Below are positions 28,390 to 50,156 of a stretch of DNA of 64,000 nt, one piece after another. A program made the position numbers and the translations under genes. Below the pieces are notes generated by a model. The model was not told where the DNA came from. It did not search any database and saw only the letters and a program-made list of their open reading frames with translations. Source of the stretch: Thermoplasmata archaeon (GTDB lineage: Archaea; Thermoplasmatota; Thermoplasmata; RBG-16-68-12; JAFNFQ01); the NCBI GenBank assembly GCA_041489255.1, contig JBGPQV010000002.1, forward strand, positions 160,001 to 224,000, in the 5' to 3' direction. Within the stretch, counting starts at the first letter, position 1. The number at the start of each line of letters is the position of its first letter.

Positions 28390-29028
28390 ATGCGGTTTCC
28401 TAAGATATACGCCAAGTGGGGACTCTGGACCATGCTTATCATCTCGCTGATCTGGAATGTTTCGATGGTTCTCGCCCCCATGACCATTCCGCCTGGAACC
28501 GTCAGCGGCTTGTACGGCGGGGCGAACCGCCTGGACTACGGCGACCTGTGGTCGACCTTGCCGCCAGCCCAGGGCACGGTCTACATGCTCGGCGACATCG
28601 AATGCCACCAGATAGCTTCAAGGACGATATATGTCAACGGCAACGAGATGCCCGTCTGCGCGAGGGATGCCTCCCTGTTCCTGTTCCTCAGCTTCGGTTT
28701 CCTGATGGCGGCGGTCGTGAAGCCCGACATCTCCATCAGCAGGATGATCCTCCGATTCCTGCCGGCCAGGATGCGCGGCCGCCTGGAGAAAGGCATGAGG
28801 CCTCTGTTCTTCACGTTGTTTCTTGCATTCATTTGCCTCGCGCCAATCGCCCTGGATGGCGGGCTCCAGCTTGTGACTTCCTACGAGAGCACGAACGCGC
28901 TGAGGTTCATCACGGGCTTTCCCGCGGGCATCTTCTTCGGGCTGATCATCGGACTGATGATCCAGAGCCTGCAGCTGCCGATGGCGTCTAGGAGAGCGCC
29001 AGTTCTAGAAGCGCCGCCGCCGAGCTAG
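28390..29028 (+). CDS. DUF2085 domain membrane protein
   Basis: CHQIASR...GNEMPVCARD, DGGLQLVTSYESTNALRFITG. Confidence 0.88.
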   Translation: MRFPKIYAKWGLWTMLIISLIWNVSMVLAPMTIPPGTVSGLYGGANRLDYGDLWSTLPPAQGTVYMLGDIECHQIASRTIYVNGNEMPVCARDASLFLFLSFGFLMAAVVKPDISISRMILRFLPARMRGRLEKGMRPLFFTLFLAFICLAPIALDGGLQLVTSYESTNALRFITGFPAGIFFGLIIGLMIQSLQLPMASRRAPVLEAPPPS

Positions 29029-29410
29029 AAGACGGATTCGTGGTTCGGGGCTGGCACGCCAGACCTCGGGAGCAAGACTTCCGACTAGTGTTCAGAGCAG
29101 CCGGATTCGACGATTTCGGATTATTGACAATTAGTGTGACGCTGGTCCTCATCTTCGGGCCATGTGGTGCCATTCTGAAAATCCAATCCCATCTATTTCC
29201 GACGGCTGAACAGAGCCAGTCTCACGATCCGCGAGATGGAATCGGTATTGTGGTGGCGGCAGCTCGGTCGTCGCCCTCGGGCAGACCGCCTTCGGCAGTA
29301 GTTATTTATATGCGACATGGCCGTGATATACCGAAACACGCTTTCATCAGCAGTGGAGGCGCGGATGTTTCATGATGCTCAAGGGAGGAGGCTCAACGAG
29401 GGGCGACCAC

Positions 29411-32400: not shown

Positions 32401-34540
32401 CACGCATCTGGCCGAGGTTGCCGAGTGGGCGTACAACAACCTCAATATTCACACGAACGCGATCGGGTGCGGCGATAAAATCACGATGATCAAGGCCTTC
32501 CAGGCGGCATCGGCGGCGGGTCATGGGTTCTTCACGCAACTGGGGACGCCGGATGCGATGGCTGATGCCATAATCAAGGGCATAATGGACGTGATACCGC
32601 CGATAGACTACGCGGCCGAGGACACCGACGTCAGCGACGGAGACCCGATGGTGAGAGACGCCTTGCCGGCCTACATCGCGTTCGTCCCGGGCACCTTCAT
32701 GGACCCGGCCACAATGGCGCCCAAGCCCCCAGAATTCACAGGCACCGACTCTTTTGGCAACACAGTCCTTGAGTGGAATGTGTCGGTCCTCAAGGTGAAT
32801 AGCAGCTGGTCGGTCCAGTTCAACGTCACCTCCTCGCTCACAGGTGTGGTCTTGACCAACGTTTGGGGCCATTCCAGGGTGAGCTTCACGAATTGGAGCG
32901 GCGCGCACATCCTCATCGACTTCCCGAAGGTCTGGATTATCGTCTCGTCGCCTCAACCACTTCCGGACCTGACGCTGGCGACCTCGGACATCGTCATGTC
33001 CCCTCCTGCGCCCTATCTTGAAGGTCTCCCGCTCTATCTGAACGCCACGGTGCACAACGTAGGCCAGGGCATGTCTGAATCGACATTCGTCAGGTATCAT
33101 GATGGTTTCCCTCCTTCGCCCCAAGTCGGTGCCGACCAGCCAATCCCCCCCGTCGCAGTCGGCGGGACAGCCGCCGTGTCGGTGGTCTGGACGCCGACCG
33201 TCCCCGGCGTCCACAACATCTGCGTCGTGGTTGATCCGATGGACAGTGTCCGCGAGACGGACGAGACAAACAATCGCGCATGCGTCGTGATGACTGTGCA
33301 GCCGACCAAGCCAGACTATGTCCCGGTAAGCCCCCTGCCTTCCAACGCGGTCAAGATCGGCCTCTCACAGCTTCTGAAGCTGTCGGTTCAGGTGCTCAAT
33401 CAAGGTGACAAGAGCGCGAACGCGACCGCCACGCTCGCGTTATACAACGAGTCCGACCCGGCCAATCCTTTCGCGACATTCACGGTGCCGCCGCTGGATG
33501 GTTCGGAGACGTCCTCGCGCTTCACCGCCACATGGAGGTCTCCCGCCACTCCAGGCACACACAACGTCGCCGCCAATGTGGACTACCACAACAACGTCAC
33601 GGAGTCGAGCGAGACCAACAACGTGTTCGCGTGGACGGTGAACGTCGTTCCCGGACCGATCACCTCTCTCGTCATAGGCCGTCCCAATTACACATCCACC
33701 GCCACGTACGCCAGATCGTCCACCCCTCTCAGCTTCGAAGTCATGGACGAGAGCGGAATGGGCATCAGGGACACGACTTACCGGATTGACGGCGGCACGT
33801 GGGTCAACTATGCCGCCAGCGGGCAGTTCGACCTGACCGGGAAGGGAGAAGGGCAGCATGTACTCGAGTGGTTTTCGGAGGACTACGCCGGCAACGTCGA
33901 AGGCATCCGCCACAGCTCCCTCATCGTTGACGACACGCCACCGTCGACATCTATCCAGCCTGGAGATTCCAATGTGTCCGTCGACGCTTTGTTCAACCTC
34001 ACGGCCGATGACGGTCAGGGTTGCGGCGTGGCGGTTCTGGAATACAGGATTGATGGCGGTTCATGGGACGCCTACCTCGCTCCCTTCAGCTTGGCGGAGG
34101 GATGGCACAACATTACATACAGGTCATGGGACCACCTGAATAACTCTATCGAGAAGACGCACCCGGTGAAGGTGGTCTCCGCCGAGTTGCCGCCTGGCGT
34201 GCGGGTGGAAGTGAACTATAAGCCCCTCGTGGCGGTGATCTTCGCAATCATCCTGGCATTGGCGGGAGTCTGGTCCTCGAGGAGGAGGCCGTGGAAGGAT
34301 GGGAAAGACAAGATGGCGGTCCTGAAAGCTTTCACATTCACGTCGATGCCCTTCGTGCTGGCGGAGGCGGCGACTGGCGTCGTGTCTTTCCTCACCGGAC
34401 AGCTGTCGATACCGCCGCTGGTTGGAGTGGGCACTGCTGTTGACTTGGCGATTCTCTTGGCTGGATTGGCTGTCGCGATTCTCCGTGTGAGGACAGGACC
34501 ATCGGAAGTAGAGAAAACGAGTACACCGCAGAAGCGGTGA
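29411..34540 (+). CDS. Giant cell-surface protein: BNR/sialidase propeller, 2 lamin-tail-like domains, VWA, CARDB, Ig-like domains, 3-TM C-terminal anchor
   Basis: Signal peptide; S.D.G.TW repeats; VLITEV/VVINEVFY; VWA DVVFVIDDTGSM; CARDB VDP.D.V.E.DETNN; start may be 29372. Confidence 0.88.
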   Translation: MERVDWVGRNGGHLRAVTFACLLLSSATLLAPGLTRDAAALQIRFSRPNVLVDNGGANVEGSPAGGPSMAVGVDGILHAVWSDSRSITEKGIYYAQSFDEGASWTMKARIDGSTGSNNVAPSIAVDTSMGAHSGNIYIVWQRGEMTSADINFVMSADGGLTWVNRNRIDSAPLNVPSMYPRITVDGLGTVYVAFMDGGGANEDIYFARSDTGGSSWTPDTLISNDASVNFYPAISSCGTLVGVAWEERDTAGVKLLVAVSSDKGATWLRNSIISISSGLGNLGWVSLAVDDKGKLHASWTLVDPSGIQSVVYSQSDDKGVTWSSPVQVSDNSPNRSYYADSSTVLATPSILYVVWTDSRNGDSDIFASWSMDNGATWGDGIPGNDVRVDDTDNNGPLTDDATIQTAPGAASSRFGLYVIWSDMRDGASFRAYAATFQVGEVLITEVRDAPDGVESIEFFNRMTYIMDVTGWHLDIDGSPFSLSPIGSIPPGGYRTVGDDPSSDLQIDVTLDDEGGTLQLFDQAGVLRDSMAYGQRGPAPDPLTLESVARVYHGGAYREYWTRAKSPTFRMQNGGSIPDSSSGVVINEVFYNAGNPALRFVELYYRGDSSADMTGFDLVGDATYTLPAVTLNTTNRYLVISPTQAPGLFSALDAAGDNLYLYDSAGALVDMVGWTAPHSQGESACRAPEGFGLPEGYDDASSSVSGWRFDCVPSPHLIGIGPPGTVLARMGDTVERNLTVVNFMDVPALVDLSWNAPPPEWTVGIFASDGVTPLADTNMDSWPDVSLGRSGTGSGTVKIVVRIGTRATAESNDTVLTRVVAVAQPEGRDSVDLVTGFYPYLAINRSANPKEVYVRGTGYGEETTITLDLKGRGMKIPGKDAGAADVVFVIDDTGSMGGWIDAVKKDVDGITNILVANITDIRFGLVSYKDVPDIDLDLGLTSDVALFKSAVSDLTATGGADEPEDPDVALDLAAHLSWRMGAIPKVMILVGDSPAHDNTHLAEVAEWAYNNLNIHTNAIGCGDKITMIKAFQAASAAGHGFFTQLGTPDAMADAIIKGIMDVIPPIDYAAEDTDVSDGDPMVRDALPAYIAFVPGTFMDPATMAPKPPEFTGTDSFGNTVLEWNVSVLKVNSSWSVQFNVTSSLTGVVLTNVWGHSRVSFTNWSGAHILIDFPKVWIIVSSPQPLPDLTLATSDIVMSPPAPYLEGLPLYLNATVHNVGQGMSESTFVRYHDGFPPSPQVGADQPIPPVAVGGTAAVSVVWTPTVPGVHNICVVVDPMDSVRETDETNNRACVVMTVQPTKPDYVPVSPLPSNAVKIGLSQLLKLSVQVLNQGDKSANATATLALYNESDPANPFATFTVPPLDGSETSSRFTATWRSPATPGTHNVAANVDYHNNVTESSETNNVFAWTVNVVPGPITSLVIGRPNYTSTATYARSSTPLSFEVMDESGMGIRDTTYRIDGGTWVNYAASGQFDLTGKGEGQHVLEWFSEDYAGNVEGIRHSSLIVDDTPPSTSIQPGDSNVSVDALFNLTADDGQGCGVAVLEYRIDGGSWDAYLAPFSLAEGWHNITYRSWDHLNNSIEKTHPVKVVSAELPPGVRVEVNYKPLVAVIFAIILALAGVWSSRRRPWKDGKDKMAVLKAFTFTSMPFVLAEAATGVVSFLTGQLSIPPLVGVGTAVDLAILLAGLAVAILRVRTGPSEVEKTSTPQKR

Positions 34541-34926
34541 CAGGCGGGAGACCGACAGAGTACATCAACACATTGGATTGCACATCCTGATTGGTCAACA
34601 GGCCGCTGCGTTGCGTTTGTGAGATGCGCATCTATCACGTCAGGGACCGTCCCATCAGTTGGAGATTCTCCATCTACTTCACGACTAGCCTAGACGACTG
34701 CGCAAAAATGTAGGCGTTGCCGCTCGCAGAATTTGCTCGACCGAATTGACCGATCCTACAGGGAATCGACGATCACCTTCTCTCCAAGCGCCCGAAAGAG
34801 TCGGCGGAGGCGTGGCGAACGTCGGCTGCGAGTTGGATTCCTGAATCAGGTTCTCGTGCTGGGAAAGCGAGGGCATCCACAACCCCCGTCCTTCGTTGTC
34901 CGACAGAAATGGGAAGTTCCATGTTG

Positions 34927-34936
34927 CTATTAAATA
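34927..34936 (+). promoter_or_regulatory. Probable TATA box for the 2961-aa gene
   Basis: CTATTAAATA about 70 nt upstream of ATG 35007. Confidence 0.45.
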
Positions 34937-35006
34937 GGGCAATCGCCATGCGGCTCCTGTCGCGGCCGGTGGGTGGCCGAGTGACCGTTCGGAGGAGAAG
35001 AAGGGC

Positions 35007-38000
35007 ATGCGTTCTCTGGCAGCGAAGCTTGCGAGCGTGTTTTGCGTGGCAGTGATATTGACAGTGGCCTTCCAGCAGGTGCAGAAAGCGGGGGCCCCCT
35101 CAAGCGGACAGAGCATTGAAATGGACGAGGATTGGGAGTCTTCAAGGCCTGTCACGCTGAGCCGTGGGGACTCTATCGCCCCGTCTGCTCAGGCAGTCGG
35201 GAACGGCATGGTGCACCTCGCGTGGATCGACACTAGGACGGGTTCCGGTGCCGTGTATAACAAGAAGAGCACGGACGGAGGGGAGACCTTCACCTCGGAC
35301 AGGCGCATTTCTGAGGTTGGTTCTCAGCCCGGAGCGCCTTCCATTTCGGTATCCACGGATGGCAAGAACGTCGCCGTGGCATGGGATGCGGTGGTCGAGG
35401 TCGAGAATCAGACCGGGAGGGCCGTTCTGTTCCGCCAGTCCACAGATGGCGGGTCGAGCTTCGGCAAGACCACCATCGTCACATTTGGACGAACTCCTCA
35501 ATTGCAGTCCTACGGTGGCGACATGATCCTCTCATTCCTGCAGGAAGATAGGGCGAAGGGCGCGACCTACCTCAGGACGTTGCGCGTCCCGGCAGGAGTG
35601 AAAGACCAAGGTCCGGCGAATGAACTTCTCACGTTCGACACATCGGCCTCGTCATTGAAGACGACCGTTGAAGCCAGCATGGTCCATATCATCTGGGACG
35701 AGTGGATGCAGGGCCGCGAAACCATCCTCCACTCCTCCATCGACCTCAGCTCGGGGCGCGTCGAGGGCGCGCATCTTGTCGCGATTCCCAGTGGGACGCT
35801 CACCCCCGAGTCGATGACCCTCACCGCGTGGAACCGAAGAGTCGTCGTCGCATGGAGCGAGACGAAGGACGGAGTGGCGGGAGTCTATTCTGCGAGGAGC
35901 GGGGACATGGGTGTACACTGGGGTTCGGTCATCGCAGTCACCGACATGAAGAGCAACGCAGCGAACCCTGCCGTGATGATGAACTCTACCGGAGTCCTGA
36001 CCGTCGTGTGGCAGGACGACCTCAAAGGGCCTTGGCAGCTCTACGGGCGGACGTTCAAGGATCTTGGCATCCCGCTCAGCCCCGCGACGAGAATTACATA
36101 TGGCAGGGCGGACGCCATGAGGCCAGCGATGGCGGTTGATGGGCAGGACAACATCTATCTATTCTGGCAGGACAGGAGGGGCGGCAGAACTTCGGTCTAC
36201 ATGGACAGCGATCTCTCCCTCCACAGACCGGCCATCGGCAGCGTCCTAGTCTACGCGGGCAGGCTCCCGGCGTCCGCATATTCTTCGCCGGAGCAGAAAA
36301 GCAGAATGCTATTCTTGGACCTCCTCAATGATTTGCGGTCGTCGATCGTCCAGAGTGAGGAGCAGACGGCGGCCATGAAGATCAGGACATACATCCTCCC
36401 TAGGATGGATGGAAGTCTCGGCGGCACACCGAGCGACGATCTCCTGGTCGACCCCAAGGCGCAGGCTCATCTCGCATGGTCATTCAGGCTGATGCTGCGC
36501 GAGCTCGACCCGGACCAGTCCGGTTCCGGGAGAACCAGGAGCGGCAGCTCCCCGATCTCCGGTGAAGAGCCACTGCCCCCGGACACTCAGTTCTCATATA
36601 CGAATTATGCCCCGGTGTTCAACATCACCGTCTCGGACATCACCTCAACCACCGCCAAGGTCAGTTGGGAGACAAACCCGCCGAATGCTTACGCCACATG
36701 GCTCAATTGGGGAAAGAACACGACTATGGGCAACCAGGTTTTCGCGCCTTCCGGAAATCCATGGAATGTCACACTCAGCGGTCTCGAGGCGAACACGACA
36801 TACTATTACGGGATCCAAGCAGTCCTGCAGACGACGCCCCCGCCTCCCATGCACATAGCCTATGACAGTTTCTACACAGGGGTCATAATCGAGAATGTGA
36901 GCTACGAGGTCCTGTCAGCAAGCGAGGTCACGATCCAATGGAAGACGAACTTGCCTTCGACAAGTGTTGTGAGGTATAACACGACGGATGCATATGGGCT
37001 GGTTGCGACCGGCGATAATGACACATATCATTTCGTCGACCTGAGCAGCCTCGATCCTCGGCAGACATATCACTTTCAAGTAGAGTCCGTCGCTGAGTCC
37101 GATCCGATTCTATGGGCCACGTGTGCGGACCACGACTTCACCACCCACTTGGAGATACTCAACCTCACGACAAGATCATCTGTGTATGCATTTGGCGCCT
37201 ACCACATCACCCTGACTTGGAACACAACCAGAAACGCCACCTCGGAGGTGAGGTATGGAAATTCGACCCTGTACGGTCTCCAGAGCAACGGCACTCAAGG
37301 CCTCATCCACAACGTGACCTTATGGGAACTTCGCAGCGCCACGACCTACTACCTCCAGGCCAGGTCAGTCGGCCTTGATGATGAGAACGACACAGACGCC
37401 GAGGAAGGCGTCCCGTTCGCCACTCCGCCGATCAGCATCTATAACATCACGGTCGATGCCACCTCCAGTTCCGCCATAATCTCGTGGGAAACGAACTACA
37501 ACGGCACATCGGTGGTCCGTTGTGGCGAGACGGTCAACTACACTGACAACAGAACCAGCACCAACGGCACAATGCACTCGGTGACGATCGACAACCTCGA
37601 CACCTCCATGACCTACCACTTCCGGGTCGAGTCGACCTCTCTGAACAACGGGAACGACACTGCCATCGGCCTGGACAGGACGTTCACGACGAAAGGAATC
37701 CTCGTTTCCAACGTCCAGGTGACAAACATAGGCACGACAAGCGCGACTATCACATGGTCGACCGGCAACGATCAGGGCACAACGGTGCTGAGGTACGGGC
37801 GTGACTCGATCTGGGAGCATGTGGCGACTGGCGCCAATGGCACATCTCACTCGGTAACCCTCCAAGGCTTGCTGCCTGAGACTAAGTATTACTACCGCGC
37901 CGAGTCCTCGTCGCTTTCCAACCTCAATGACACGAACGTCTCCCTGACCAACTTCTTCAACACCCTCTATGCCCCCAACGACGCGGACAGCGGGACCGAC

Positions 38001-41000
38001 GCGGGGAACACCATTGGCATGGCCCTACCCGTGGAACCAGGCAATCACAAGGGTCGGGAGGAAGCGGTCGTGGATCGCAACGACTTCTACAGGCTCCGCG
38101 CGGGTGGCAACCAGACAATCAAAGCCCGTCTCGTCCCGCCCGCCAACATGGACCTCGACCTCTTCCTCTACGGACCCAACCAGCAGCTCAAAGCGTCTTC
38201 CCAGGCACGCGGCCTCGGGCTGCAGGAGTCGCTGGCCTACACCGCGAATATGGATGGCTTCTGGTTCATCGAGGTACGCCTTATCAGCGTCCAAGGGGGC
38301 TCGTCGGGCTATTACACACTGACGTTCAACGCCACCGCCGGTTCTCCTGAGAGGCTCGTCCTCGATGTAGGCGCGGCCAGCGACACGGACGTGGTCGGCA
38401 GAGTGCCGGGCCTGTCGATTGACGCGTCGACCGGATGGGGCGGCTCCACGCATTCGACATCCTCGTCGACCGCCACTTTCTGGAACATCGCAAACAACCC
38501 GTGGTACCGCCAGGCGGTGGCCGACAGCACGTTCTACCTAAGCCTCTACCGCAACTCGCCCGAGAAGTACACGGATTGGCTCGTCACCTTCCAATACTAT
38601 TGCTCTGAGGACGTGAACGTCTCCCTCTATAACGGGGCGGGCTGGGTCAACGTCACCAGGATGCCCGGGAAAGGCAACTGGTGGACATGGAACTTCATCC
38701 TGGAGCACACGCTGTTCTACGACTACCTGCCCAGCACGATCGGGATCAACGTGGCCATGCGCTTCTCCGATGTCGTAGATATCGACAACATCTCCGCCAT
38801 CGCGTACGGCTACGCCACTCATGTCGGTCACGGCAGCGACGACAACGACACCTTGTACCACTCCCCGGGCATGCTGACGGGCACCGGCTGGACTGACACT
38901 GGGAACGGTTATAGGAACGGCGCCAACTGCAGTGAACTCGTGATGAACATCCCAGACACGAGCGCCACCTACAACGTCGATTTCAGATTCAAGGGCGACA
39001 TCGAGAAGCTCCATGTCGAGCAGTATGACGGCCATGATTGGCTGCGTCTGGCCACTCTTGTCTCGTTCGGCATGGACAACTACTTCAACACGAACCAGAC
39101 CGCGTACTACGATGCATATCCTTTGATTCCCGGCATGAACCTCAGGATCAGGTTCGTCGCCTCCGCCATTCACGAGTTCACCTACGCCTCGATACACATC
39201 GTCCGCTGGTTCGACGAGGTCGGTGCATCAGGTGACAACTATCTCTGGTCGCATGAGCCGGGGATGAGCCTTTATCCGAACAGCCAGTGGGGGCCAATCG
39301 CCGCTATCGACGGGCGGCAAGTCAGATACGGGCAGAGGGACGCGGAAGTCTATCTCAACGCTCCCTTGATTGACTCCGATTACATTGTCTACCTCGCTTA
39401 CAAGGCATCAACTGCGGGCGGACAGGTGAAGCAAAGGAACGGCAATTCCTACCAGGTACTTGGGGACCTTCAGGGCGACTCACAGTGGCACACCGGGGTT
39501 TTCAGGACGAATCTCACGTTCTACAGGGACTGCTACGGTAGCGATCAATTGAACATCGTGCTTCACTTCACTGTCGCCCTGTACCTCGACCGCATGTGGG
39601 CGGAGCCAGATCAAGACAATGACCATATATCCGAACTCGGGGAGACGCAAACATACCCCGAGGAGGAATTGCCGAACGGCACGACTCCGCTGAGCTTCAA
39701 CTACTCCGGATATGCCTCCGGCTTGTTCATGATCTACGGCAATGCGGGGGGGAGCTGGATGCAGGGAGTCGATTGGCGACAGGAGGCGTATATCGACTTC
39801 TTCATCAACAACACGAGGGTCGGGCAGGTCTTCCGCTCGACCGGAAAGAAGAATTATCATCCAGAAAGCACGCCCTCCCAGCCTAAGGAGCTGAGAGTCG
39901 GACCGGACGGCATAGTCGTTCCCCGAGTCGACACATACGTCAATCCGGACTGGTCTGCGGACTTCGAGATCAAGTTCCCCCTCTGCAGCGGTCCGAAGAC
40001 GATAAAGGCGGAAAGCTACGGAAAGCCCATCAAGAACTCACAATGGATAACCTCGTGGCACATAGCGAGGCTCACGTCGCAGGCAACCAACAACGACACG
40101 GACGGAGACGGCCTTACAGACATGTACGAGGCATGTACCTCGCACACCTCCCCCCTGGCCCCGGACACGGACTATGACGGCCTCACCGACTACGATGAAC
40201 TCTATTGGTTCAACTACGCAAACAGCAGCGCAGGCGGCTACGAGGCGAATGTGACGATGAACATTACCGTAGACGCCTTTGCGAGATACTCGATCGCCAT
40301 GGAGACTACCGCGACGCCCTCCGGAGGACAAAACGTCTCGATGCAGGTTTACATGGATGGGCAATTGAAAGAGAGCAGGAACTGTACCGCGGGTTGGACT
40401 TTGGAGTTATCCGGTTTCACGCTCTCGCTGGCGAAAGGCATGCACAGCCTGCAGATAAACAGGGGAAGCTCGACCGGCAGCGTCAAGGTGTATCATGTCT
40501 GGGGATCGAGGTCTGACATCACGTCGCCTCTCGAGGAAGACGCGGACAGGGATTTCTTGCTGGATGGAGAAGAGGTCAAGGGCGAGATAGGTTGGTTCAC
40601 TGACCCGACAGAGCCCGACACGGATGGCGACTGGGCACCAGATGGATACGAGGTGCGAGCGCTCAAGTCTGATCCTATGAAAACGGACACGGATGGAGAC
40701 GGGTTCAAAGATTCCATAGACATCGATCCGCTGCATGACCTGACAGTCCAAGTCTGGCTGAAGGAACTGTGGATGACCGGCTGGGATCAGAGTAAGACAT
40801 ACTACTGCGAGGTGGGCATCAACGGCGATTTCACGCGCACTGCCGCCTCGAACGGGGATGACCCTGACCCGAGGGGGAATCACTTCATCTCCAAGAATGT
40901 CCCCGATGACAAGAGGGATGTCACGATAGTCATCAAGGCGTTCGACAACGGGCCGTCGGACAACGATATCGACATCACTCCGGGACCGGGCAAATCGCTT

Positions 41001-43892
41001 GTGGTCCACCTCAACCTCACCGACAACGTATGGGATGGCCACTCGAGCGGCACGGAAAACACTCATGGCGATGTGTATTACGAGATACGCACGGTGAAAT
41101 CCGGCAAGGTCAACACTCTGCTGATGACCCCCACCGACTGGTCCACCGTCCTGAACAGCTCCTCTAGTACACTTCATCGCTTCGTCGGCGAGCAGCGGTT
41201 CGCGGTCCTCAACGTGAATGTGGCGGACTCGACCGGGGCCGAGGCATACTGGAACACCCAGGGCTTCTCTGGGTCAGGGAACGACAAGTACTTCGAAGAC
41301 ATCACAGGTCATAGTCACAAGGCCCTCCAGAGGACTTCCGGTCCGGACATCGAGGTCACCCAGGGCTGGTTGGGGAAAGGACTTCGTCTTGAGAACAGTC
41401 AGAACCAGTACCTGGAAGTCCTGCATGACCCCAAGCTGGATTTCACCGGGGAGATGACGGTCTCGTTCTGGATAAACCCCGACAGGGACTACAATTCAGG
41501 TTGCTCCGTCGGCGATGACTGGGAATGGGCCGTAGGGAAGGATGACGGATGGTGGATCGGCTACTATTGCGGGTCGGTCAAGGGCATCAAGTTCCAGGTC
41601 TATGAGAGTCCGCAAGTCCAGCACGAGGTAACAAAAGCTGTCAACTTGGAGCAGGGCTCGTGGTATCATATAGCCGGAATCTACGATGGGACGAGCCTCA
41701 CGGTCCACATCGTGGACATTAACGGAGCAGGCGATTTGGTGCAGTCGTCTGCCACGGCGCCGTTCCTCATGAACATGAACGAGAACGACATCTGGATCGG
41801 CAAGCTCCGCAGTCGCTACTTCGATGGCCGTCTGGACGAGGTCGCCCTCTATGCGAGGGCTCTGAAATCGGAAGAGGTCACATCCGTGAACGAGAAGATG
41901 CTTGACCTGGACATGGATACGAGGACCCGGGATGTCTATGCTCGCCAATTTAAGGACCTGTCCGGTCACGGAAACGATGCTGGAGTCGGGGGAGGCACCG
42001 GGTCGATCGACGACATCATGACGATCGAGGGGCGTAGGGGACTGGCATTCGGGCTCAAGGGCGGCGCCAGCATGTGGGTCAGCGAGCCCGGTTTGGACGT
42101 GGACCGTCTGACGCTCGCGGTATCCTTGTGGTGGCGTGGCGGGACCGCCACCCAGTCGATCGCGCGCGGGGATGGCATGTACTCTTTGAGCATAGGGGGC
42201 GACGGAACGGTCATGTATGGTCTCGGGAGGCAGGGCGTCTCATACATGCCCGTATCAACAGGCTATAAGCTCCCACCGGGCGAGTGGCACATCGTCGCCC
42301 TCACCTATGACGGCATGAACGCGTATGTGTATGTCGACGGCGAGAAGGTGCACTCCAACGAGGGGCTTTCCGTCGACCCGATCGGCTTGTCCCACCCATC
42401 ATCACCGCAGTTATGCCTGTTCTACTGCACTGGCGGCACCCCATTCAATGGCTATATGGACGACCTCACGCTCTGGAACAGGTCGATGAGCCAAGGAGAA
42501 ATCCGCGCGCTCAACTACCTCGACAGAGGGCTGAACGGCATCGTCGTGCCGAGGGGCCTCTTCTTCCAGTCGCAGTTCTTCGTATCGCTGAATGATACGA
42601 GCACGTTCGGTTCCGGGAACCCGCTCATGGGATCCACAGCCATGGGCAACGGCAATCCTCTCGAATTGCACTCCAAGACGATACAGCAGCTGATAGCCGC
42701 CAACCTCACCCTGGCGCAGGCGTGGACGTGGATAGACCAGCTCATGAGGAACGAGTCCGGGAACGTGACGTCGTTCCCCCTCGTCGTCACGAAGGAGGTC
42801 TACACCATGGGCTTCGACTCCATGGTCATGAACGTCCTGCCCAACGTGACCGTCGAGAACAGCGGGAACCATTCGATGCCGCCGCCACCGGTCCGCGACG
42901 TGTCGTTCTGGGAGGCGGCGTGGAACTCATTCACAGGCATGCTGGAGGCCGCCTGGAACGCGGTCGTGGCGGTTGCCACGTTCGTCGCCAACGTCGCCCT
43001 GGCGGTGATCAAGTGGTGCATAGACTTCGCGGTGGCGATAGCGGAGGGGAGGGGGCTGCAGTTCTTCTACGACACGGTGGTGAAGCCGTTCGTGGAGGCG
43101 ATACTCGCATTCATAAGATGGGTGATTGACCTCATCAAGGCATTGATCACCTTCTTATTCAGCCCCATAATCCAAGCCGTCGAAGGCTACTTCAACAGTC
43201 TTCGACACTCAATCGAAACCGCCTTCGTTGAGATAAACGGAGGGAATCCGACTCGAGAAGAGGATGCCAAGCGTGCTGCAGAAATCGTGGGATGTCTGTT
43301 TCTCGGAGGGGCATTCCTGCTTTTCTGGGCCTTGGCCCTTGCGCTATTCGCAATCGATATCGTCTCAAAGCCGTTCACCATCTTTGCCGGCATGATAATC
43401 CCGATTGTGATAGGTGTCGCTTTGGGCTTGATCTTCGGAGCTACTCTCAGTGCTGCCATTCCAGTGAGCAACAATGATGCAAGCGGAAGTCCTGACAACA
43501 TCGATGCAATCCCGGAATTCGTCATCGATTACATACCCGCGGGGATATGGTGGGATGAGCGCGCGCCTCTTTCCGTCGGAAGATTCCTCACGACATTATT
43601 GGTCATGATTGCCAGGCAGACCATACTGGATGATCCTTTGTCTATAGGGGACAAGGTTACGGCGCTGGCTCTCTCCATAACGGGTTTAATCCTCTTCCTC
43701 ACCTCCCCGCTCATCGGCGGAGGTGCCGGCGTGCTCGGGACGCTTGCGGCATTCGGACTCTCCATCTTCGGTCTGCTCAAGGCTATGAGTGGAAAATTGA
43801 AGGATTTGGCCCCTCTGCTGCACAATGTTGTACTTGCGCTGGCGATAGCCTCTGTTGTCATGGGCCTGGGATCCGTATTGAGGCTTGGTTGA
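35007..43892 (+). CDS. Giant secreted multidomain protein (BNR, FN3 x5, PPC, DxDxDG Ca-binding repeats, LamG x2, hydrophobic C-terminal domain); putative polymorphic toxin
   Basis: Signal peptide; STDGG.TF; I.W.TN..S.V.YG...H.V.L..L...T.Y FN3 units; DFY...DLDLFLY PPC; DTDGDGLTD repeats; WYHIAGIYDG / WHIVALTYDG LamG; about 330-aa hydrophobic tip. Confidence 0.85.
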   Translation: MRSLAAKLASVFCVAVILTVAFQQVQKAGAPSSGQSIEMDEDWESSRPVTLSRGDSIAPSAQAVGNGMVHLAWIDTRTGSGAVYNKKSTDGGETFTSDRRISEVGSQPGAPSISVSTDGKNVAVAWDAVVEVENQTGRAVLFRQSTDGGSSFGKTTIVTFGRTPQLQSYGGDMILSFLQEDRAKGATYLRTLRVPAGVKDQGPANELLTFDTSASSLKTTVEASMVHIIWDEWMQGRETILHSSIDLSSGRVEGAHLVAIPSGTLTPESMTLTAWNRRVVVAWSETKDGVAGVYSARSGDMGVHWGSVIAVTDMKSNAANPAVMMNSTGVLTVVWQDDLKGPWQLYGRTFKDLGIPLSPATRITYGRADAMRPAMAVDGQDNIYLFWQDRRGGRTSVYMDSDLSLHRPAIGSVLVYAGRLPASAYSSPEQKSRMLFLDLLNDLRSSIVQSEEQTAAMKIRTYILPRMDGSLGGTPSDDLLVDPKAQAHLAWSFRLMLRELDPDQSGSGRTRSGSSPISGEEPLPPDTQFSYTNYAPVFNITVSDITSTTAKVSWETNPPNAYATWLNWGKNTTMGNQVFAPSGNPWNVTLSGLEANTTYYYGIQAVLQTTPPPPMHIAYDSFYTGVIIENVSYEVLSASEVTIQWKTNLPSTSVVRYNTTDAYGLVATGDNDTYHFVDLSSLDPRQTYHFQVESVAESDPILWATCADHDFTTHLEILNLTTRSSVYAFGAYHITLTWNTTRNATSEVRYGNSTLYGLQSNGTQGLIHNVTLWELRSATTYYLQARSVGLDDENDTDAEEGVPFATPPISIYNITVDATSSSAIISWETNYNGTSVVRCGETVNYTDNRTSTNGTMHSVTIDNLDTSMTYHFRVESTSLNNGNDTAIGLDRTFTTKGILVSNVQVTNIGTTSATITWSTGNDQGTTVLRYGRDSIWEHVATGANGTSHSVTLQGLLPETKYYYRAESSSLSNLNDTNVSLTNFFNTLYAPNDADSGTDAGNTIGMALPVEPGNHKGREEAVVDRNDFYRLRAGGNQTIKARLVPPANMDLDLFLYGPNQQLKASSQARGLGLQESLAYTANMDGFWFIEVRLISVQGGSSGYYTLTFNATAGSPERLVLDVGAASDTDVVGRVPGLSIDASTGWGGSTHSTSSSTATFWNIANNPWYRQAVADSTFYLSLYRNSPEKYTDWLVTFQYYCSEDVNVSLYNGAGWVNVTRMPGKGNWWTWNFILEHTLFYDYLPSTIGINVAMRFSDVVDIDNISAIAYGYATHVGHGSDDNDTLYHSPGMLTGTGWTDTGNGYRNGANCSELVMNIPDTSATYNVDFRFKGDIEKLHVEQYDGHDWLRLATLVSFGMDNYFNTNQTAYYDAYPLIPGMNLRIRFVASAIHEFTYASIHIVRWFDEVGASGDNYLWSHEPGMSLYPNSQWGPIAAIDGRQVRYGQRDAEVYLNAPLIDSDYIVYLAYKASTAGGQVKQRNGNSYQVLGDLQGDSQWHTGVFRTNLTFYRDCYGSDQLNIVLHFTVALYLDRMWAEPDQDNDHISELGETQTYPEEELPNGTTPLSFNYSGYASGLFMIYGNAGGSWMQGVDWRQEAYIDFFINNTRVGQVFRSTGKKNYHPESTPSQPKELRVGPDGIVVPRVDTYVNPDWSADFEIKFPLCSGPKTIKAESYGKPIKNSQWITSWHIARLTSQATNNDTDGDGLTDMYEACTSHTSPLAPDTDYDGLTDYDELYWFNYANSSAGGYEANVTMNITVDAFARYSIAMETTATPSGGQNVSMQVYMDGQLKESRNCTAGWTLELSGFTLSLAKGMHSLQINRGSSTGSVKVYHVWGSRSDITSPLEEDADRDFLLDGEEVKGEIGWFTDPTEPDTDGDWAPDGYEVRALKSDPMKTDTDGDGFKDSIDIDPLHDLTVQVWLKELWMTGWDQSKTYYCEVGINGDFTRTAASNGDDPDPRGNHFISKNVPDDKRDVTIVIKAFDNGPSDNDIDITPGPGKSLVVHLNLTDNVWDGHSSGTENTHGDVYYEIRTVKSGKVNTLLMTPTDWSTVLNSSSSTLHRFVGEQRFAVLNVNVADSTGAEAYWNTQGFSGSGNDKYFEDITGHSHKALQRTSGPDIEVTQGWLGKGLRLENSQNQYLEVLHDPKLDFTGEMTVSFWINPDRDYNSGCSVGDDWEWAVGKDDGWWIGYYCGSVKGIKFQVYESPQVQHEVTKAVNLEQGSWYHIAGIYDGTSLTVHIVDINGAGDLVQSSATAPFLMNMNENDIWIGKLRSRYFDGRLDEVALYARALKSEEVTSVNEKMLDLDMDTRTRDVYARQFKDLSGHGNDAGVGGGTGSIDDIMTIEGRRGLAFGLKGGASMWVSEPGLDVDRLTLAVSLWWRGGTATQSIARGDGMYSLSIGGDGTVMYGLGRQGVSYMPVSTGYKLPPGEWHIVALTYDGMNAYVYVDGEKVHSNEGLSVDPIGLSHPSSPQLCLFYCTGGTPFNGYMDDLTLWNRSMSQGEIRALNYLDRGLNGIVVPRGLFFQSQFFVSLNDTSTFGSGNPLMGSTAMGNGNPLELHSKTIQQLIAANLTLAQAWTWIDQLMRNESGNVTSFPLVVTKEVYTMGFDSMVMNVLPNVTVENSGNHSMPPPPVRDVSFWEAAWNSFTGMLEAAWNAVVAVATFVANVALAVIKWCIDFAVAIAEGRGLQFFYDTVVKPFVEAILAFIRWVIDLIKALITFLFSPIIQAVEGYFNSLRHSIETAFVEINGGNPTREEDAKRAAEIVGCLFLGGAFLLFWALALALFAIDIVSKPFTIFAGMIIPIVIGVALGLIFGATLSAAIPVSNNDASGSPDNIDAIPEFVIDYIPAGIWWDERAPLSVGRFLTTLLVMIARQTILDDPLSIGDKVTALALSITGLILFLTSPLIGGGAGVLGTLAAFGLSIFGLLKAMSGKLKDLAPLLHNVVLALAIASVVMGLGSVLRLG

Positions 43893-43893
43893 G

Positions 43894-44205
43894 ATGGCTA
43901 GCTCGATAGGCGACCGGGAAGCGGGACAAACACCGCATCGACGGAGCGGAGAGGAGGGCGAAAGGTTGCAGGGCAGATTGGACGCTTGGGCGGGCGTATT
44001 CCTCATTGCGGTTGCCTTACTCGAGCTTGCTGCAATCCTTAACGCGTTCTTTGGCAATGGTTGGGATCCGCTGGATATGAAAGGTGGATTCTCCAATGGC
44101 TTGAGCAGTGCATTTCTCGTTGTCCTTTTCATCGCTTGCATGGTGTGCGGTCCTTTTCTCATTCTGAGAGGGTTGCATCGAATGCGGGGCACCAGCCTGC
44201 GTTGA
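43894..44205 (+). CDS. Small 2-TM membrane protein; candidate immunity protein
   Basis: ATG 1 nt after the stop of the giant gene; two TM helices; same lower-GC codon style as the tip of the giant gene. Confidence 0.6.
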   Translation: MASSIGDREAGQTPHRRSGEEGERLQGRLDAWAGVFLIAVALLELAAILNAFFGNGWDPLDMKGGFSNGLSSAFLVVLFIACMVCGPFLILRGLHRMRGTSLR

Positions 44206-44219
44206 GGACTGCGACTGAC

Positions 44220-44609
44220 ATGACAGGAGAAATGGAACGAACGGAGCACATGCACAGGGAAATGACGAAAGCGATTGCTGGACGTATACCGCGCCTGCCA
44301 AGAACACTTAGGACGTTCGCGGGCAACGGTTGGCCCGTCACACTAGAGCTTCTCTCTCCTCCCGCCACAATCGAATCCCGCCGACATTTCAAGCTGACGG
44401 TCTGGCCCGCCTGCAGGTCGCTGCGATCCATGCGCGGCAGGAAGGTTAAAGGGATTCTCATTGAACCATATCTGAATGGACCTATTGCTCTGTCGATGCG
44501 AAGGCAGAAGACGAGTCTGCCGCCTCCGTTCCTCCAATTCGTTCTTTCTTTTCGTTCTGCCAGGAGCTATCTTTTTATGGACCAAGTCAGTACAGGCAAA
44601 CGTGGCTAA
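44220..44609 (+). CDS. Small hypothetical protein, paralog copy 1 (GWPxTLELLSPP family), possibly decaying
   Basis: Homologous to 46508-46846 with mainly synonymous differences; CPAC altered to WPAC. Confidence 0.5.
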   Translation: MTGEMERTEHMHREMTKAIAGRIPRLPRTLRTFAGNGWPVTLELLSPPATIESRRHFKLTVWPACRSLRSMRGRKVKGILIEPYLNGPIALSMRRQKTSLPPPFLQFVLSFRSARSYLFMDQVSTGKRG

Positions 44610-45258
44610 GAAGGCTCAAGATGCTGTGGTGGATGCCCTGAGCGCCAGATTTCCCATAGTCAGGAAATTCCGTGACCAGCCCCACCCGACGAATTGTATT
44701 GCAACATGTATCCATAATGCCCTTGTCGCTCTTGGTGACAAAACGCAGAGGCAGGATATCCAAAGAATCTCGATCAAGGAGATCAACAGGACGATAAGGC
44801 TAAAGAAGCAAATGATCCCAAATCCTCCATTCATAGTGCCCGCTTTCAACAATCACTTCGAGAAGAAGAGGTTGCGTGCTCACGAGGGCAAAGGACCGAG
44901 GATCGACATCACCGACTTGGAGAGAGTGTTGGGAAACCCGGTGGCGTCTCCTCTCATCGTCACGGTATCCCCCCATTTCTTTGAGGTGTACGGGGTCGAG
45001 GTTCCTCCACCTTTAATCGTGGCCGGAGATGAGTATGAGGTAGATCACGACATTCTCATCCTTGCCATTGACGATAAAATCTGGTTCCATGACCCTCTGG
45101 CAAACATACCGCCCCTCAGCCGGGCCAAAGCAAAACCACAAGGTCGAATGGACCTGCAGCGGTTCCTGGAGGTTTGGAAGGCGAAAGAAACAAATAGCTT
45201 CATGTGGATAGAATCGGTGTTACGTGGACCAATCGATAAATGGACACAGGAGGAGTAG
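44602..45258 (+). CDS. Peptidase C39-like (papain-fold) protein
   Basis: Q-x5-C(IATC), DHDILIL (His), HDP (Asp), F...W C-terminal pattern; GTG start at 44602. Confidence 0.75.
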   Translation: MAKKAQDAVVDALSARFPIVRKFRDQPHPTNCIATCIHNALVALGDKTQRQDIQRISIKEINRTIRLKKQMIPNPPFIVPAFNNHFEKKRLRAHEGKGPRIDITDLERVLGNPVASPLIVTVSPHFFEVYGVEVPPPLIVAGDEYEVDHDILILAIDDKIWFHDPLANIPPLSRAKAKPQGRMDLQRFLEVWKAKETNSFMWIESVLRGPIDKWTQEE

Positions 45259-45261
45259 CCG

Positions 45262-46218
45262 ATGACGTTCGTTAGTGTTTCCCGCTATCCGAGAGAGAAT
45301 GTCGAGTCTCGGTTGACGAAGTCGCTTGGACGATACGTCCGCAACGTGTTCATTGATGAAGTCGTGACGACACGAGAGGGAGTGCGCTTCGCTTCCTTGT
45401 GCGCTATACGACCGCTCTTCATCTTTGACGACCGTGAAGGAAAGGGAAGACTTCATTGGCAGGTCGCCCGCAAGTTCGACGTCGTTAAGCTCGCTGAGAG
45501 AGAAGGTAAGATTGGCTTTGAACTCGACAAGTTGACGAAATCTGACAGGAAACTGCCCAGGGTCTTTCTTGATGATTTCCTCAAGACGGAATCTGCAATG
45601 CTGAGAAGCATCGAACACCTTCTTGTGAGAATCGACCTCGTTCAAAACGCGATGAGTCCGATCACCAAACTCGTTTCCCATGTTATTGAGCACGGTCGCG
45701 TGAGACCCACGGATTTACATCACAAGAAGGGCATCATAAGAGCAACGGAGTATTGCGATTTCCTTGTGAGCTTAGGGACTTTGAGGAAGGAGAATGGTCA
45801 CTACGTTGAAGGGGGCAATTTCAGGAAAGGCGAGTTCAGGGAGATGACGGATTCCGAGTTGTTTGAAACCGTGCTTGCGGAGATCTATAAGAAAGGCTAT
45901 AATTACATGAGAACGAAGCTGCACCTGACGGGTGTCGTCCCATACCTGAATCTGTCCCATGCATACTATCGACCCAGCTCAGATTACGGCGAAATAGTCC
46001 GCGTCTCAGATGAGCAACTGTGGTATTGGTATGTGAATTTCTACGGCAAACGTCCCCCGCCGGCAACTTGCAGCGACAGGATTAGGAAGCTTTCATCGGT
46101 AGGAATCTGGGAAAGGCAAAGAGACCTGATTATAGGAAAAGAGGAAATTTTCGACCGATTCCAAGAGACTCTGGGGATTACGAATGCCACCACTGATGGT
46201 GGCCGAGCCTTGGCATAG
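45262..46218 (+). CDS. Hypothetical protein with winged-helix-like segments, coupled to the C39-like gene
   Basis: 3-nt gap and AGGAG SD; YCDFLVSLGTLRKENGHY and IRKLSSVGIWER wHTH-like patterns. Confidence 0.75.
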   Translation: MTFVSVSRYPRENVESRLTKSLGRYVRNVFIDEVVTTREGVRFASLCAIRPLFIFDDREGKGRLHWQVARKFDVVKLAEREGKIGFELDKLTKSDRKLPRVFLDDFLKTESAMLRSIEHLLVRIDLVQNAMSPITKLVSHVIEHGRVRPTDLHHKKGIIRATEYCDFLVSLGTLRKENGHYVEGGNFRKGEFREMTDSELFETVLAEIYKKGYNYMRTKLHLTGVVPYLNLSHAYYRPSSDYGEIVRVSDEQLWYWYVNFYGKRPPPATCSDRIRKLSSVGIWERQRDLIIGKEEIFDRFQETLGITNATTDGGRALA

Positions 46219-46507
46219 AATCCCTGACACGTATTTCGCTCCGAAATGAACGCGAGCGATGGACCGCTGATCGTCCGACGTCCGAGGAGGTCATGGTTGC
46301 CATTCTTAATCATTAAAACATCTCACGATTCCTGCATATACACACAGTCCGCGCGGAGCGACCGCCGTTTCGCCGTCCTTGTTATCCACACTTAGGTATA
46401 ACGGATGGGTGAGGGCGAGTCCCCGTGTATCGTCTTTCCTCATGGCGGCAGCAATCGCTTTATCCCCGTGATTCGTTCACCCCGAATGTGAAGGACTGGA
46501 GGTGACG

Positions 46508-46846
46508 ATGTCGTCCCGCCTTGATAGCCCGGAGTGGATTAAACGCAAGGATTCGACAACAGCAATGATGAGGAATCTCCCAGTGGAAAAAACGTCATCA
46601 AATAGGTTCAGAGGTTACGGCTGGCCCGCCACTCTGGAACTCCTCTCACCGCCAATCGGGAAGCCCGTAGATTCCCGCCAAACAGCCAAGATGAGTATCT
46701 GCCCCGCCTGCAAGTCGGTCCACGAGGACGGCGGTTACTACGTCTCCGGTCATGGAGACATGGCCTCGCTCATTTTCGACACTCCCGTCATCGTCGTGGG
46801 CAATGACAACTCAGGCGAGCTGAACTCAACTCTATGCAGTTCTTGA
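46508..46846 (+). CDS. Small hypothetical protein, paralog copy 2 (GWPxTLELLSPP...CPAC)
   Basis: GGAGGTGA SD before ATG, TTTATC box upstream, homology to 44220-44609. Confidence 0.6.
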   Translation: MSSRLDSPEWIKRKDSTTAMMRNLPVEKTSSNRFRGYGWPATLELLSPPIGKPVDSRQTAKMSICPACKSVHEDGGYYVSGHGDMASLIFDTPVIVVGNDNSGELNSTLCSS

Positions 46847-46959
46847 TGTGATTCATCTATCCAAAGTCGTCTATCATCGGTCTAGCGCCTGTCATCGTTC
46901 AGAGACGGTAATGGGAAGGACATTCTCAAGCGCTTGCGTCTTCAGGTTTCCTTGTTTCA

Positions 46960-47262
46960 ATGCTGATTCAGCACTCAAACCAAAGGCTCAAGAGTGCCTG
47001 GCGAGGTCGTGATGTCGATAAGGGGAACTCGGATGGCCTTTCACCGAAAAGGATCCTCGTGAGGAATGTCGTCCTCGAAGTATGCGAAACGATCTCCCAG
47101 CAGGCGTTCGATCGCGGGGAAGTCAGGGCGCTCCTGACGGCGCTCAAGACCCAATCTGCCAAGTCCGGCTAGCATACCAAGGCGGAACTGAAAACGAAGG
47201 TGGTCCTCCTCAAGCCCGCCGAGGGGGACTTCGGCGCCTGGGGCCTCCTCCGCGAAGATTAA
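46960..47262 (+). pseudogene. Probable remnant of an archaeal tyrosine-integrase N-terminal domain
   Basis: NQRLKSA...DGLSPKRI...FDRGEVRALL...SG*HTKAELK resembles the RRL..A...EGLS..RI...F....DI..LV...S..TK.DYK N-terminus of archaeal integrases; in-frame TAG; no catalytic domain. Confidence 0.4.
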
Positions 47263-47717
47263 GGGGGAGAACTCCCGAGGGTCAGGTTTCCCGTCCTCGA
47301 TTCGACCAGACCGACTCGGATGGCAATTCACAGCGACGCCCGCCACGGCTCCCAGAAACAGCTCCCGCCCAAGCGACAGCAGCGAAACCAGAGAGGCCTT
47401 TGAAAGCGTAGCCTGATCCGGCGAGACCTGCCCCCAAGTGCGTGGTCCCCCCGGCGACAGCGGTCCCCCCTCCTGCTGCGCCCGCCAAAGCCAAGCTCGC
47501 ACCGAACGTCAGTCCAGCCGAGAACCCAACTCCTTCCCCCGCCAACGCCGCCATGCATTCAATTTGCGCGTATTTTCGTCACGCAGGTTCGGATGATTCG
47601 ATTGACGAATTCAAAATGACCGTGGTTTATCGGTAATTTGCCGTGCTTAGCCCGGGACCCTCGTATATTTCGTGGATGCGGCGGGCACTAATACATGCAA
47701 GCTGCAATAGGGTTTCG

Positions 47718-48191: not shown

Positions 48192-48230
48192 CCGCTGCGG
48201 GAAGATCCTGGGGTCGATGCACGATCCGTC

Positions 48231-49241: not shown

Positions 49242-49341
49242 CGTTCCCCGGATATATAACGGTGACGAGGACATGTCGACGCAGGGATTGCACAGGTTAA
49301 TCAAACTCGGTTCGGTAGTCAAGGTCGAGGTCGCGTTCCAA

Positions 49342-50070: not shown

Positions 50071-50156
50071 GATCCAGCTCGAGGAATTCCCTGCCCCTCC
50101 GTGCCATCCACATCACAGTCGCACTGCCCCAGATCCTCATTCAAGAAAAATACGGA

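Follow-up and report, generated by a model that had tools for sequence, protein, structure and literature searches.

Polymorphic toxin systems, in the sense of Zhang, Aravind and co-workers, combine a conserved stalk with a variable tip, an immunity gene, orphan cassettes and toxins that are usually of many unrelated folds. We analyzed a 64,000-nucleotide (nt) stretch of the genome of a Thermoplasmata archaeon (contig JBGPQV010000002.1, positions 160,001 to 224,000; hereafter the window), in which the gene for a giant exported protein with a hypervariable membrane tail is directly followed by a small membrane-protein gene; an earlier note had taken the two for a toxin and its immunity partner. 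Inter-cellular conflict and kin recognition are poorly known in archaea, and the archaeal comparators that we found are either in silico surveys or deal with a different apparatus, for instance contractile injection in haloarchaea. We found no paper that links polymorphic toxins with Methanomassiliicoccales or Thermoplasmata, although a listing among the uncharacterized candidates of the 2019 mBio survey (Makarova et al.) is possible. Among the described bacterial systems, the ionophore toxins of contact-dependent inhibition (CDI), CdiA-CT of Escherichia coli EC93 and relatives, make up a single large polymorphic family whose members are predicted to be membrane bundles of five helices, and their CdiI partners are short, hydrophobic, equally polymorphic and protective only against the cognate toxin (PMC11630599). 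VARTIG of the Thermococcales, a module of unknown function that its authors liken to polymorphic toxin systems (PMC8416519), is the nearest archaeal analogue.

The giant gene of the window is an intact open reading frame (ORF) of 2961 codons, unbroken over its full span. Its product has a basic start followed by hydrophobic residues 4-22, as judged by Kyte-Doolittle hydropathy and reading, and this N-terminus resembles a Sec signal peptide. In the stalk, Pfam recognized above threshold two stretches of Laminin_G_3 (E 7.8e-37), FN3-type modules (4-5 stretches of Pur_ac_phosph_N and 3-4 of fn3) and calcium-type TSP3_bac repeats. The protein does not end in a single transmembrane (TM) helix with a basic tail; instead, about eight helices are spread over the last 330 amino acids (aa) according to both hydropathy and AlphaFold2, and nothing at this end corresponds to an archaeosortase/PGF-CTERM or single-TM anchor, for which NCBIfam gave no match. 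The earlier note had read the signal peptide, the hydrophobic helical end and most of the stalk modules correctly, while the BNR and PPC modules that it also named are plausible but lie below the curated cut-offs (BNR_2, E 4.5e-4, 20.1 bits versus 31.4; PPC, E 3.8e-5, 24.9 bits versus 25.9). Its claim that the stalk differs from those of RHS, CDI and MuF proteins also held, since Pfam and NCBIfam scans of the giant protein returned no RHS/YD, TPS/FHA or MuF domain in the stalk.

Between the stalk and the tail lies a conserved segment, the pre-tip, which consists of a soluble part with an invariant V-E-N-S-G-N-x-S and a proline run, followed by a conserved hydrophobic helical hairpin, and which ends in ...VVKPFVEAILAFIRWVID at residue 2708. 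Conservation breaks off at this residue. Compared with P0005, a 2949-aa metagenomic relative encoded on contig L018, the window protein is 60-85% identical over most of the stalk and 76-79% identical over residues 2501-2700, and after about 60 almost identical residues up to RWVID (2708) the identity falls to 21-27% to the end. The same break was seen within the genome, in a full-length paralog of about 2980 aa on contig C16 (paralog B, found with residues 2601-2961 as the query), which is 50-75% identical over most of the stalk, 70-72% over residues 2501-2700 and 19-30% thereafter. It recurs in G011, the metagenome-assembled genome of an uncultured member of the Methanomassiliicoccales from another family of the same order, where three pre-tips are near-identical (88-98%) and are followed by unalignable tails (12-30%).

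The base composition changes at the same place. In the window gene the GC content at third codon positions (GC3) is 0.90-0.94 in the pre-tip and 0.55-0.61 in the tail, with a stalk mean of 0.77 (standard deviation 0.06), and the same drop is found in the C16 paralog (0.84 to 0.56) and in an orphan copy on contig C8 described below (0.90 to 0.64). Because identity and composition both step within a few codons, the junction points to recombination of a foreign cassette rather than to relaxed constraint. The window protein thus shows the layout of a polymorphic toxin, with a signal-peptide-like start, a conserved multidomain stalk and a variable tip set off by steps in both identity and GC3. As a separate observation, the GC3 of the pre-tip, which lies far above that of the stalk, would fit repeated gene conversion among copies.

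A 176-aa profile of the pre-tip (A1, built from eight copies with the window copy among the seeds) was searched with HMMER against 1.84 billion representative proteins and gave 223 representatives at E<=1e-3, 39 of them at E<=1e-30; this exhaustive search superseded a word-indexed search with the tip region, which is of limited sensitivity and had returned one relative only. All matches that carry a source name are called 'hypothetical protein'. Among the 150 proteins listed of these 223, 112 reach the end of the pre-tip, and in 88 of the 112 it is followed by a tail of 230-310 aa with at least three hydropathy helices; the rest comprise 16 shorter tails, mostly in cut proteins, seven longer ones and one that is non-hydrophobic. 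The last belongs to P0126, a 1946-aa protein with an array of PKD domains, whose pre-tip carries a 292-aa non-hydrophobic tail of no known family and may represent a different kind of tip. The pre-tip and tail are found as a module on differing stalks, made either of LamG and FN3 domains or of long PKD arrays. Pre-tips are present in 23 of 301 sampled genomes of the class, representing 16 of 88 genera, often in several copies side by side, and none was found in the genome of the same genus (G001). The window copy belongs to this family by its pre-tip, its six-helix tail of 253 aa and the small gene 1 nt past its stop. The Trp-periodic helical part of the pre-tip profile also matched two phage tape-measure proteins (P0092 and P0113, PhageMin_Tail) in 5-9 repeated stretches at E values of about 1e-8 to 1e-7; we set homology aside, as the matches are weak, repeated and possibly due to Trp-periodic amphipathic helices, and the likeness may reflect convergence of membrane-inserting helices of this kind.

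In the window protein, the final stretch of about 330 aa has hydrophobic helices between residues ~2654 and 2958 by hydropathy and is rich in alanine (13.9%), leucine (13.3%), isoleucine (10.6%), valine (8.8%) and glycine (8.8%). An AlphaFold2 model of residues 2530-2961 is all-helical and of modest confidence (predicted local distance difference test, pLDDT, 68.6; predicted template modeling score, pTM, 0.32), and shows a long conserved hairpin (modeled residues 105-150 and 154-216), behind which come six to eight helices of lesser length. The nearest tails are those of L023 (36% identity over 250 aa), an orphan of L018 (38% over 164 aa) and the C8 orphan (27% over 193 aa). By BLAST, 97 tails fell into 35 groups. 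Three of the five largest groups, namely the largest, that of the window and a third, are homologous over nearly their full length (hhalign probability 92-97%), while the other two, including the C16 type, match over the N-terminal ~90-100 columns only (87% and 69%); reversed controls reached at most 4.3%. These profile matches indicate that many of the tails form one fast-diverging superfamily of membrane domains.

A small gene is linked to nearly all tails of the family. After 30 of the 32 complete tails, an ORF with at least one hydropathy helix follows within -68 to +37 nt of the stop, and in 29 cases it has at least two helices; of the remaining two tails, one is followed by an 88-aa ORF that lacks a helix and the other by the end of its contig. 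In its usual form the small protein starts with a short, charged N-tail, continues with a hairpin of two helices and closes with a soluble domain of 60-180 aa; across cassettes the sequences of these proteins are for the most part unrelated. Among 351 pairs formed by 27 unique cassettes, both the tail and the small gene were similar in 16 pairs and neither in 326, whereas the tail alone was similar in eight pairs and the small gene alone in one. Tail type and small-gene type therefore co-vary, and tail similarity was not predicted by the identity of the pre-tip.

In the window, the stop codon of the giant gene (TGA, 43890-43892) is separated by 1 nt from the ATG of the small gene, as the earlier note had seen; an alternative TTG start at 43885 would give a product of 106 instead of 103 aa. 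The 103-aa product has two hydropathy helices, with the N-tail and two-helix hairpin of its counterparts but without the soluble C-terminal domain that is usual among them. It has no match in Pfam, NCBIfam, PADLOC or PHROGs, and by tblastn the window holds no remnant of a PH-type small gene, the type found beside the most similar tails. As the ORF lacks a homolog, the case for a real gene is built on its position and architecture, both of them the rule in 30 of the 32 cassettes, and it is on these grounds and not by homology that the window pair joins the others. Prediction of a complex between the tail (residues 2629-2961, with an alignment) and the 103-aa protein gave scores of 0.40, 0.18 and 0.13 against a mark of 0.32, which speak neither for nor against a complex. 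A WDP/DPW loop motif possibly shared by the window protein and the small proteins of C8 and L018 was noticed by eye only and is not claimed here.

Spare cassettes, composed of a tail and a small gene, were found both in this genome and elsewhere. The copy on C8 is a frame of 592 codons that is homologous to the window protein from DLTLWNRS, the last strand of the second LamG domain, onward; its upstream part is an unrelated leader, and downstream of it come a two-helix small gene of its own and, beyond that gene, another fragment that is truncated. In G011 an array runs from a 2888-aa main gene through an 839-aa and then an 817-aa orphan, each of the three followed by a small gene, to a truncated third leader, and the orphans of this type carry two LamG domains besides the tail. 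The L018 contig, from which P0005 derives, holds three tails and three small genes, and ten further loci have two pre-tips. The window itself holds truncated remnants only. The result thus agrees with the expectation of the earlier note that the stalk would be conserved while the tip and the small gene co-vary, in the break after residue 2708, the linkage of the small gene, the pair counts and the orphan arrays.

The orphans begin with a leader containing the motif C-x2-C-x3-H-x5-C, present in 13 of 15 aligned starts, which the main genes lack; in this genome it is preceded by GYGWPATLELLSP. The place at which the leader joins the conserved region is not fixed, and several such fusion points occur. 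Further leader sites lie at 83054-83209 of C8 and 378345-378641 (minus strand) of C1 in this genome (G000), at 10908-11100, 13944-14130 and 17951-18060 of L010, and at 7903-8331 (minus strand) of L012. The leader may be a zinc knuckle; its reading as a lipobox signal was rejected, since the cysteine has no preceding hydrophobic signal region. Each of the three cassette loci of this genome has, at its downstream edge, a copy of a DNA element of 55-65 nt, the copies being 84-94% identical (in the window, at C8 85745-85802 and, on the opposite strand, at C16 40204-40254). It was not found in 58 other loci and has no Rfam match, and it may mark the cassette boundary or be a terminator.

Small genes also stand alone. 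One small-gene family has five cassette-linked and six further members. Its AlphaFold2 model is confident (pLDDT 84.9, pTM 0.74) and consists of two TM helices and a beta-sandwich that is capped by a helix; nearly all Foldseek matches of the model are pleckstrin homology (PH) domains, but at E values of 0.02 or worse, and in another small-gene member the Pfam family bPH_6 fell just under its cut-off. In the model, the soluble domain of this family is PH-like. A profile of the five cassette-linked members retrieved further homologs without an adjoining tail in G003, G006, G018 and G011. Those of G003 and G006 are single stand-alone small genes, G011 has one more on contig C12, and G018 has a tandem triplet (L056 851-2468, G018:C13), each with two TM helices and a PH-like domain, between housekeeping-type genes. 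The triplet looks like an immunity-gene island, and by analogy the stand-alone genes would follow the pattern of orphan immunity genes in bacterial conflict systems. No pre-tip match was found in G003, G006 or G018, which are 95, 84 and 87% complete, and stand-alone small genes without a pre-tip are hard to explain as mere partners in the assembly of an anchor.

The locus lies in a variable island of about 18.5 kb. In G001, the homologs of the two flanks (C82 10068-10784, corresponding to window positions 28310-29026, and C82 10821-13432, corresponding to 47552-50172) are separated by only 36 nt, so that the island is an insertion or deletion between two species of one genus. Just upstream of it, a 1.5-kb repeat (~26820-28310) has 23 matches elsewhere in G001 and none at its syntenic site there; its ORF (27193-27894, minus strand) has no Pfam match, and the repeat is probably an uncatalogued insertion element. 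The genes adjoining the giant gene are unrelated to CdiB or other CDI parts, and Rfam and tRNA scans of the cassette region returned only tRNA-Leu at 50154-50242. Between the two leader remnants downstream of the small gene, two ORFs of no known family (GC2, the GC content at second codon positions, 0.38; GC3 0.58) had no match in Pfam, NCBIfam, PADLOC or PHROGs. The coordinates of the features are collected in the following table.

Table 1. Features of the locus, in window positions.
Feature	Positions	Strand	Basis or remark
Variable island of 18.5 kb: two giant surface-protein genes and cassette remnants	29027..47551		Not at the syntenic site of G001
Giant exported protein gene: signal-peptide-like start, stalk, pre-tip, tail	35007..43892	+	ORF, translation, Pfam
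Signal-peptide-like N-terminus, aa 1-30, hydrophobic core 4-22	35007..35096	+	Hydropathy; cleavage site by reading
Two LamG (concanavalin-like) domains	41397..42416	+	Laminin_G_3 at aa 2131-2291 and a second stretch; Laminin_G_2 at ~aa 2404-2452
Conserved pre-tip, aa 2538-2708	42618..43130	+	8-copy alignment A1, profile search, GC3, AlphaFold2
Variable tail, aa 2709-2961, 253 aa, 6 hydropathy helices	43131..43889	+	Hydropathy, identity drop, GC3
Gene of the 103-aa two-helix membrane protein, a candidate for the cognate partner or immunity protein	43894..44205	+	Position, hydropathy
Degenerate orphan-leader copy (GNGWPVTLELLSP..., Cys/His motif decayed)	44220..44453	+	tblastn of the 46502 ORF (36% over 81 aa, E 1.7e-9); alignment
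Two ORFs of 260 and 318 aa	44476-45258, 45262-46218	+	
Orphan-cassette remnant: leader (GYGWPATLELLSP...CPxCxxVHExGG) and first pre-tip residues (GNDNSGEL), then stop	46502..46846	+	tblastn, alignment
DNA element of 55-65 nt	46835..46899	+	blastn, alignment

The neighboring giant protein of the island (29372-34540, 1722 aa) also has several hydrophobic helices at its C-terminus; around these (34097-34455) contigs from other sediment runs show many loose ends and alternative continuations, and the multi-helix end may be common to paralogs or variable too. Contigs from four other sediment runs, compared with positions 33000-50000, carry the same sequence with 0 differences in long pieces. Two of the contigs end at 43095, within the conserved pre-tip, and one loose end there resembles the C16 paralog; the simplest reading is that the assembly branches there at a repeat. 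No cassette-switching joint was found among the contigs over the same interval, although contigs cannot show absence. Within the stalk, identity profiles identify the LamG region as the most variable part (35-47% identity versus 56-85% in adjoining parts). In both full-length comparisons, two stalk patches stand out by their variability, at 39807-40106 (residues 1601-1700) and 41307-42206 (residues 2101-2400), with 31-47% identity versus 55-85% around them; the latter spans the first LamG domain and may be a candidate variable receptor-binding part.

When these features are set against the described systems, the CDI ionophores share with the archaeal locus a very large surface protein with a C-terminal membrane helical bundle of one polymorphic family, a short, hydrophobic and polymorphic ORF directly downstream, and a fixed peptide landmark that splits the conserved from the variable part (PMC11630599). 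On the other hand, the archaeal system has no TPS domain, FHA repeats, CdiB partner or VENN motif by Pfam and NCBIfam. The sole resemblance to VENN is the invariant VENSGN, which lies about 75 residues before the junction and so does not mark it. The archaeal protein instead has a Sec signal peptide, as far as its N-terminus can be read, and an FN3/TSP3/LamG stalk, and the archaeon has no outer membrane; its tail is longer (~250 aa and ~6 helices versus a five-helix bundle) and is preceded by conserved hydrophobic helices, and most of the small partners consist of two TM helices and a PH-like domain. No similarity between the ionophores and the archaeal tail was detected in sequence or fold by Pfam, Foldseek or a PDB profile. 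Tandem spare cassettes of a tip and a small gene, with a conserved stretch allowing recombination, are likewise known as orphan cdiA-CT/cdiI and rhs-CT/rhsI pairs (PMC3150448), from which the archaeal orphans differ in being complete ORFs with the C-x2-C-x3-H-x5-C leader joined at several points. The repeat shell and the PxxxxDPxGL-type boundary of Rhs/YD proteins have no counterpart here, as judged by the lack of an RHS or YD match in Pfam. VARTIG shares with the locus a large secreted protein whose C-terminal part is hypervariable by recombination and is followed by variable small genes, mostly for membrane proteins, but it varies an Ig domain and ends in DNNxxxGG behind one hydrophobic stretch (PMC8416519), where the present family varies a multi-helix membrane tail behind a conserved pre-tip, and its stalk domains and lineage differ. 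A small protein with two TM helices and a PH-like domain also accompanies a membrane-active antimicrobial in the case of the leaderless bacteriocins, where these proteins are implicated in small-peptide transport (PMC8657885); the PH-like fold of the archaeal proteins stems from one AlphaFold2 model, and the small protein of the window has no PH domain.

By analogy, we think it somewhat probable that the locus encodes a polymorphic membrane-targeting effector/immunity system that works like the CDI ionophore toxins without CDI, Rhs or MuF parts. In such a system the giant adhesin-like stalk would bind a neighboring cell, and the helical tail, once out of the producer's membrane, would enter that of the neighbor and dissipate its ion gradient, as CDI ionophore toxins do. 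The cognate small protein would bind and neutralize the tail inside the membrane, in the producer and its kin, and spare cassettes of tail and small gene, kept downstream or elsewhere, would be swapped in by homologous recombination within the pre-tip. A more specific form of this proposal, which we put forward tentatively and regard as rather doubtful, is an archaeal contact-dependent inhibition in which a Sec-anchored adhesin would pass an ionophore-like bundle from membrane to membrane in Thermoplasmata without a rigid wall, the two-helix protein, often with a PH domain, would protect, and the CCHC-led orphans would be translated as independent short forms instead of being silent spares, making up a self-contained weapon and kin-recognition code of parts unrelated to CDI, Rhs, MuF or type VI and type VII secretion system effectors.

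Several observations weigh against an effector/immunity system. The conserved pre-tip helices, acting as stop-transfer segments, would be expected to hold the tail in the membrane of the producer itself, and neither a release site nor a delivery machine was identified. Textbook polymorphic toxin families have many unrelated tips; the membership of many tails in one membrane-domain superfamily is unlike them, the tail groups do not represent toxins of many unrelated folds, and a single superfamily also fits a structural anchor. Pfam, NCBIfam, PADLOC and PHROGs place the tail in none of the known families of toxins or pore-formers, and no soluble toxin domain was recognized in any tail. The resemblance to colicin-type pore-formers drawn in the earlier note found no fold or sequence link: for the colicin domain, a ten-helix globule with a hydrophobic hairpin, as for any other, there was no Pfam match on the tip at E<=1, and Foldseek against the PDB, run on a model of low confidence, gave 0 matches at E<=0.001 and helical ones at chance level only; the best match of the PDB sequence profile was a designed helical bundle (E 0.0086), and protein Atlas scores for the tip were at most 0.82, below use. 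The 103-aa protein, for its part, had no homolog among 5.8 billion proteins in a word-indexed search, which returned only a shorter call of itself, and BLAST detected no likeness between it and the small genes that accompany the three tails closest to that of the window. Each orphan is a complete ORF that has a start codon and the conserved CCHC leader, a build that the favored model leaves unexplained and for which silent CDI or Rhs orphans are not known. Finally, linkage by itself also makes adjacent genes co-vary, and the cassettes are related to one another. The representatives were moreover clustered at 50% identity, which removed pairs sharing both pre-tip and tail, a bias from which the within-genome comparisons (the C16 paralog and the G011 copies) are free.

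The same features might instead serve self/non-self recognition without killing, with the tail and its small partner as an identity barcode read at the contact of wall-less cells and controlling adhesion, fusion or exchange, in the manner of Proteus IdsD/IdsE or Myxococcus TraA. The junction, the cassettes and the co-variation fit such a barcode equally well, the near full-length homology of three of the five largest tail clusters would suit one diversified recognition scaffold, and the conserved hydrophobic hairpin would be expected to keep the tail in the producer membrane. Self/non-self discrimination is also among the three hypotheses that the VARTIG authors offer for their comparable Thermococcales locus (PMC8416519). 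We consider a barcode unlikely. Stand-alone small genes without a pre-tip, including a tandem triplet, suit protection and less obviously an identity tag, and low-GC3 cassettes and a patchy, island-borne spread are typical of conflict systems, though compatible with recognition. We give a similarly low probability to an ordinary multi-pass anchor with a small assembly or stabilizing partner, whose diversity would come from weak constraint on lipid-facing helices and from paralog recombination, in some lineages varying the exposed LamG domains, for example to evade viruses. It would account for the uniform length and helix number of the tails in the 88 of 112 proteins, the kinship of those three clusters, the lack of any toxin-like domain and the hydrophobic helices that also end the neighboring giant protein, and the G011-type orphans do hold LamG domains, the most variable part of the stalk, together with a tail. 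Drift, however, does not make identity fall from ~80-98% to ~20% over a few residues, nor does it shift GC3 by 0.3 at that very point; the orphans of the present genome start after the LamG domains and hold the pre-tip and tail only, so that their exchange would change just the membrane-embedded part that is hidden from viruses; and neither a dedicated, equally hypervariable partner for each tail nor partner genes standing alone without a pre-tip would be expected of an anchor.

A further possibility concerns the window copy rather than the family, namely that the giant protein belongs to the family while the pairing has decayed, the 103-aa ORF being a chance or degenerate frame at a locus with eroded cassettes. 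The ORF lacks both a homolog and the soluble domain of its counterparts, its GC3 of 0.58 does not stand apart from that of the other two frames (0.61 and 0.48), and the two downstream leader remnants are truncated. Against this, the giant ORF is intact over all its codons, the 103-aa ORF lies at the exact small-gene position of 30 of the 32 cassettes with the same N-tail and two-helix hairpin, and the four further sediment runs have the same sequence, one contig bridging 43714-45812 with 0 differences. We consider decay highly improbable.

Taken as a whole, this sizeable family bears every genomic hallmark of a polymorphic effector/immunity system, but with a new stalk, recombination junction, membrane-tail superfamily and cassette leader. 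If the tail is toxic and the small gene protective, membrane-targeting contact weapons that swap cassettes would have arisen independently in archaea, and the family would offer a set of orthogonal membrane protein pairs as a toolbox. Should the tails prove non-toxic, the family would still represent an unusual hypervariable membrane anchor with a co-evolving partner.

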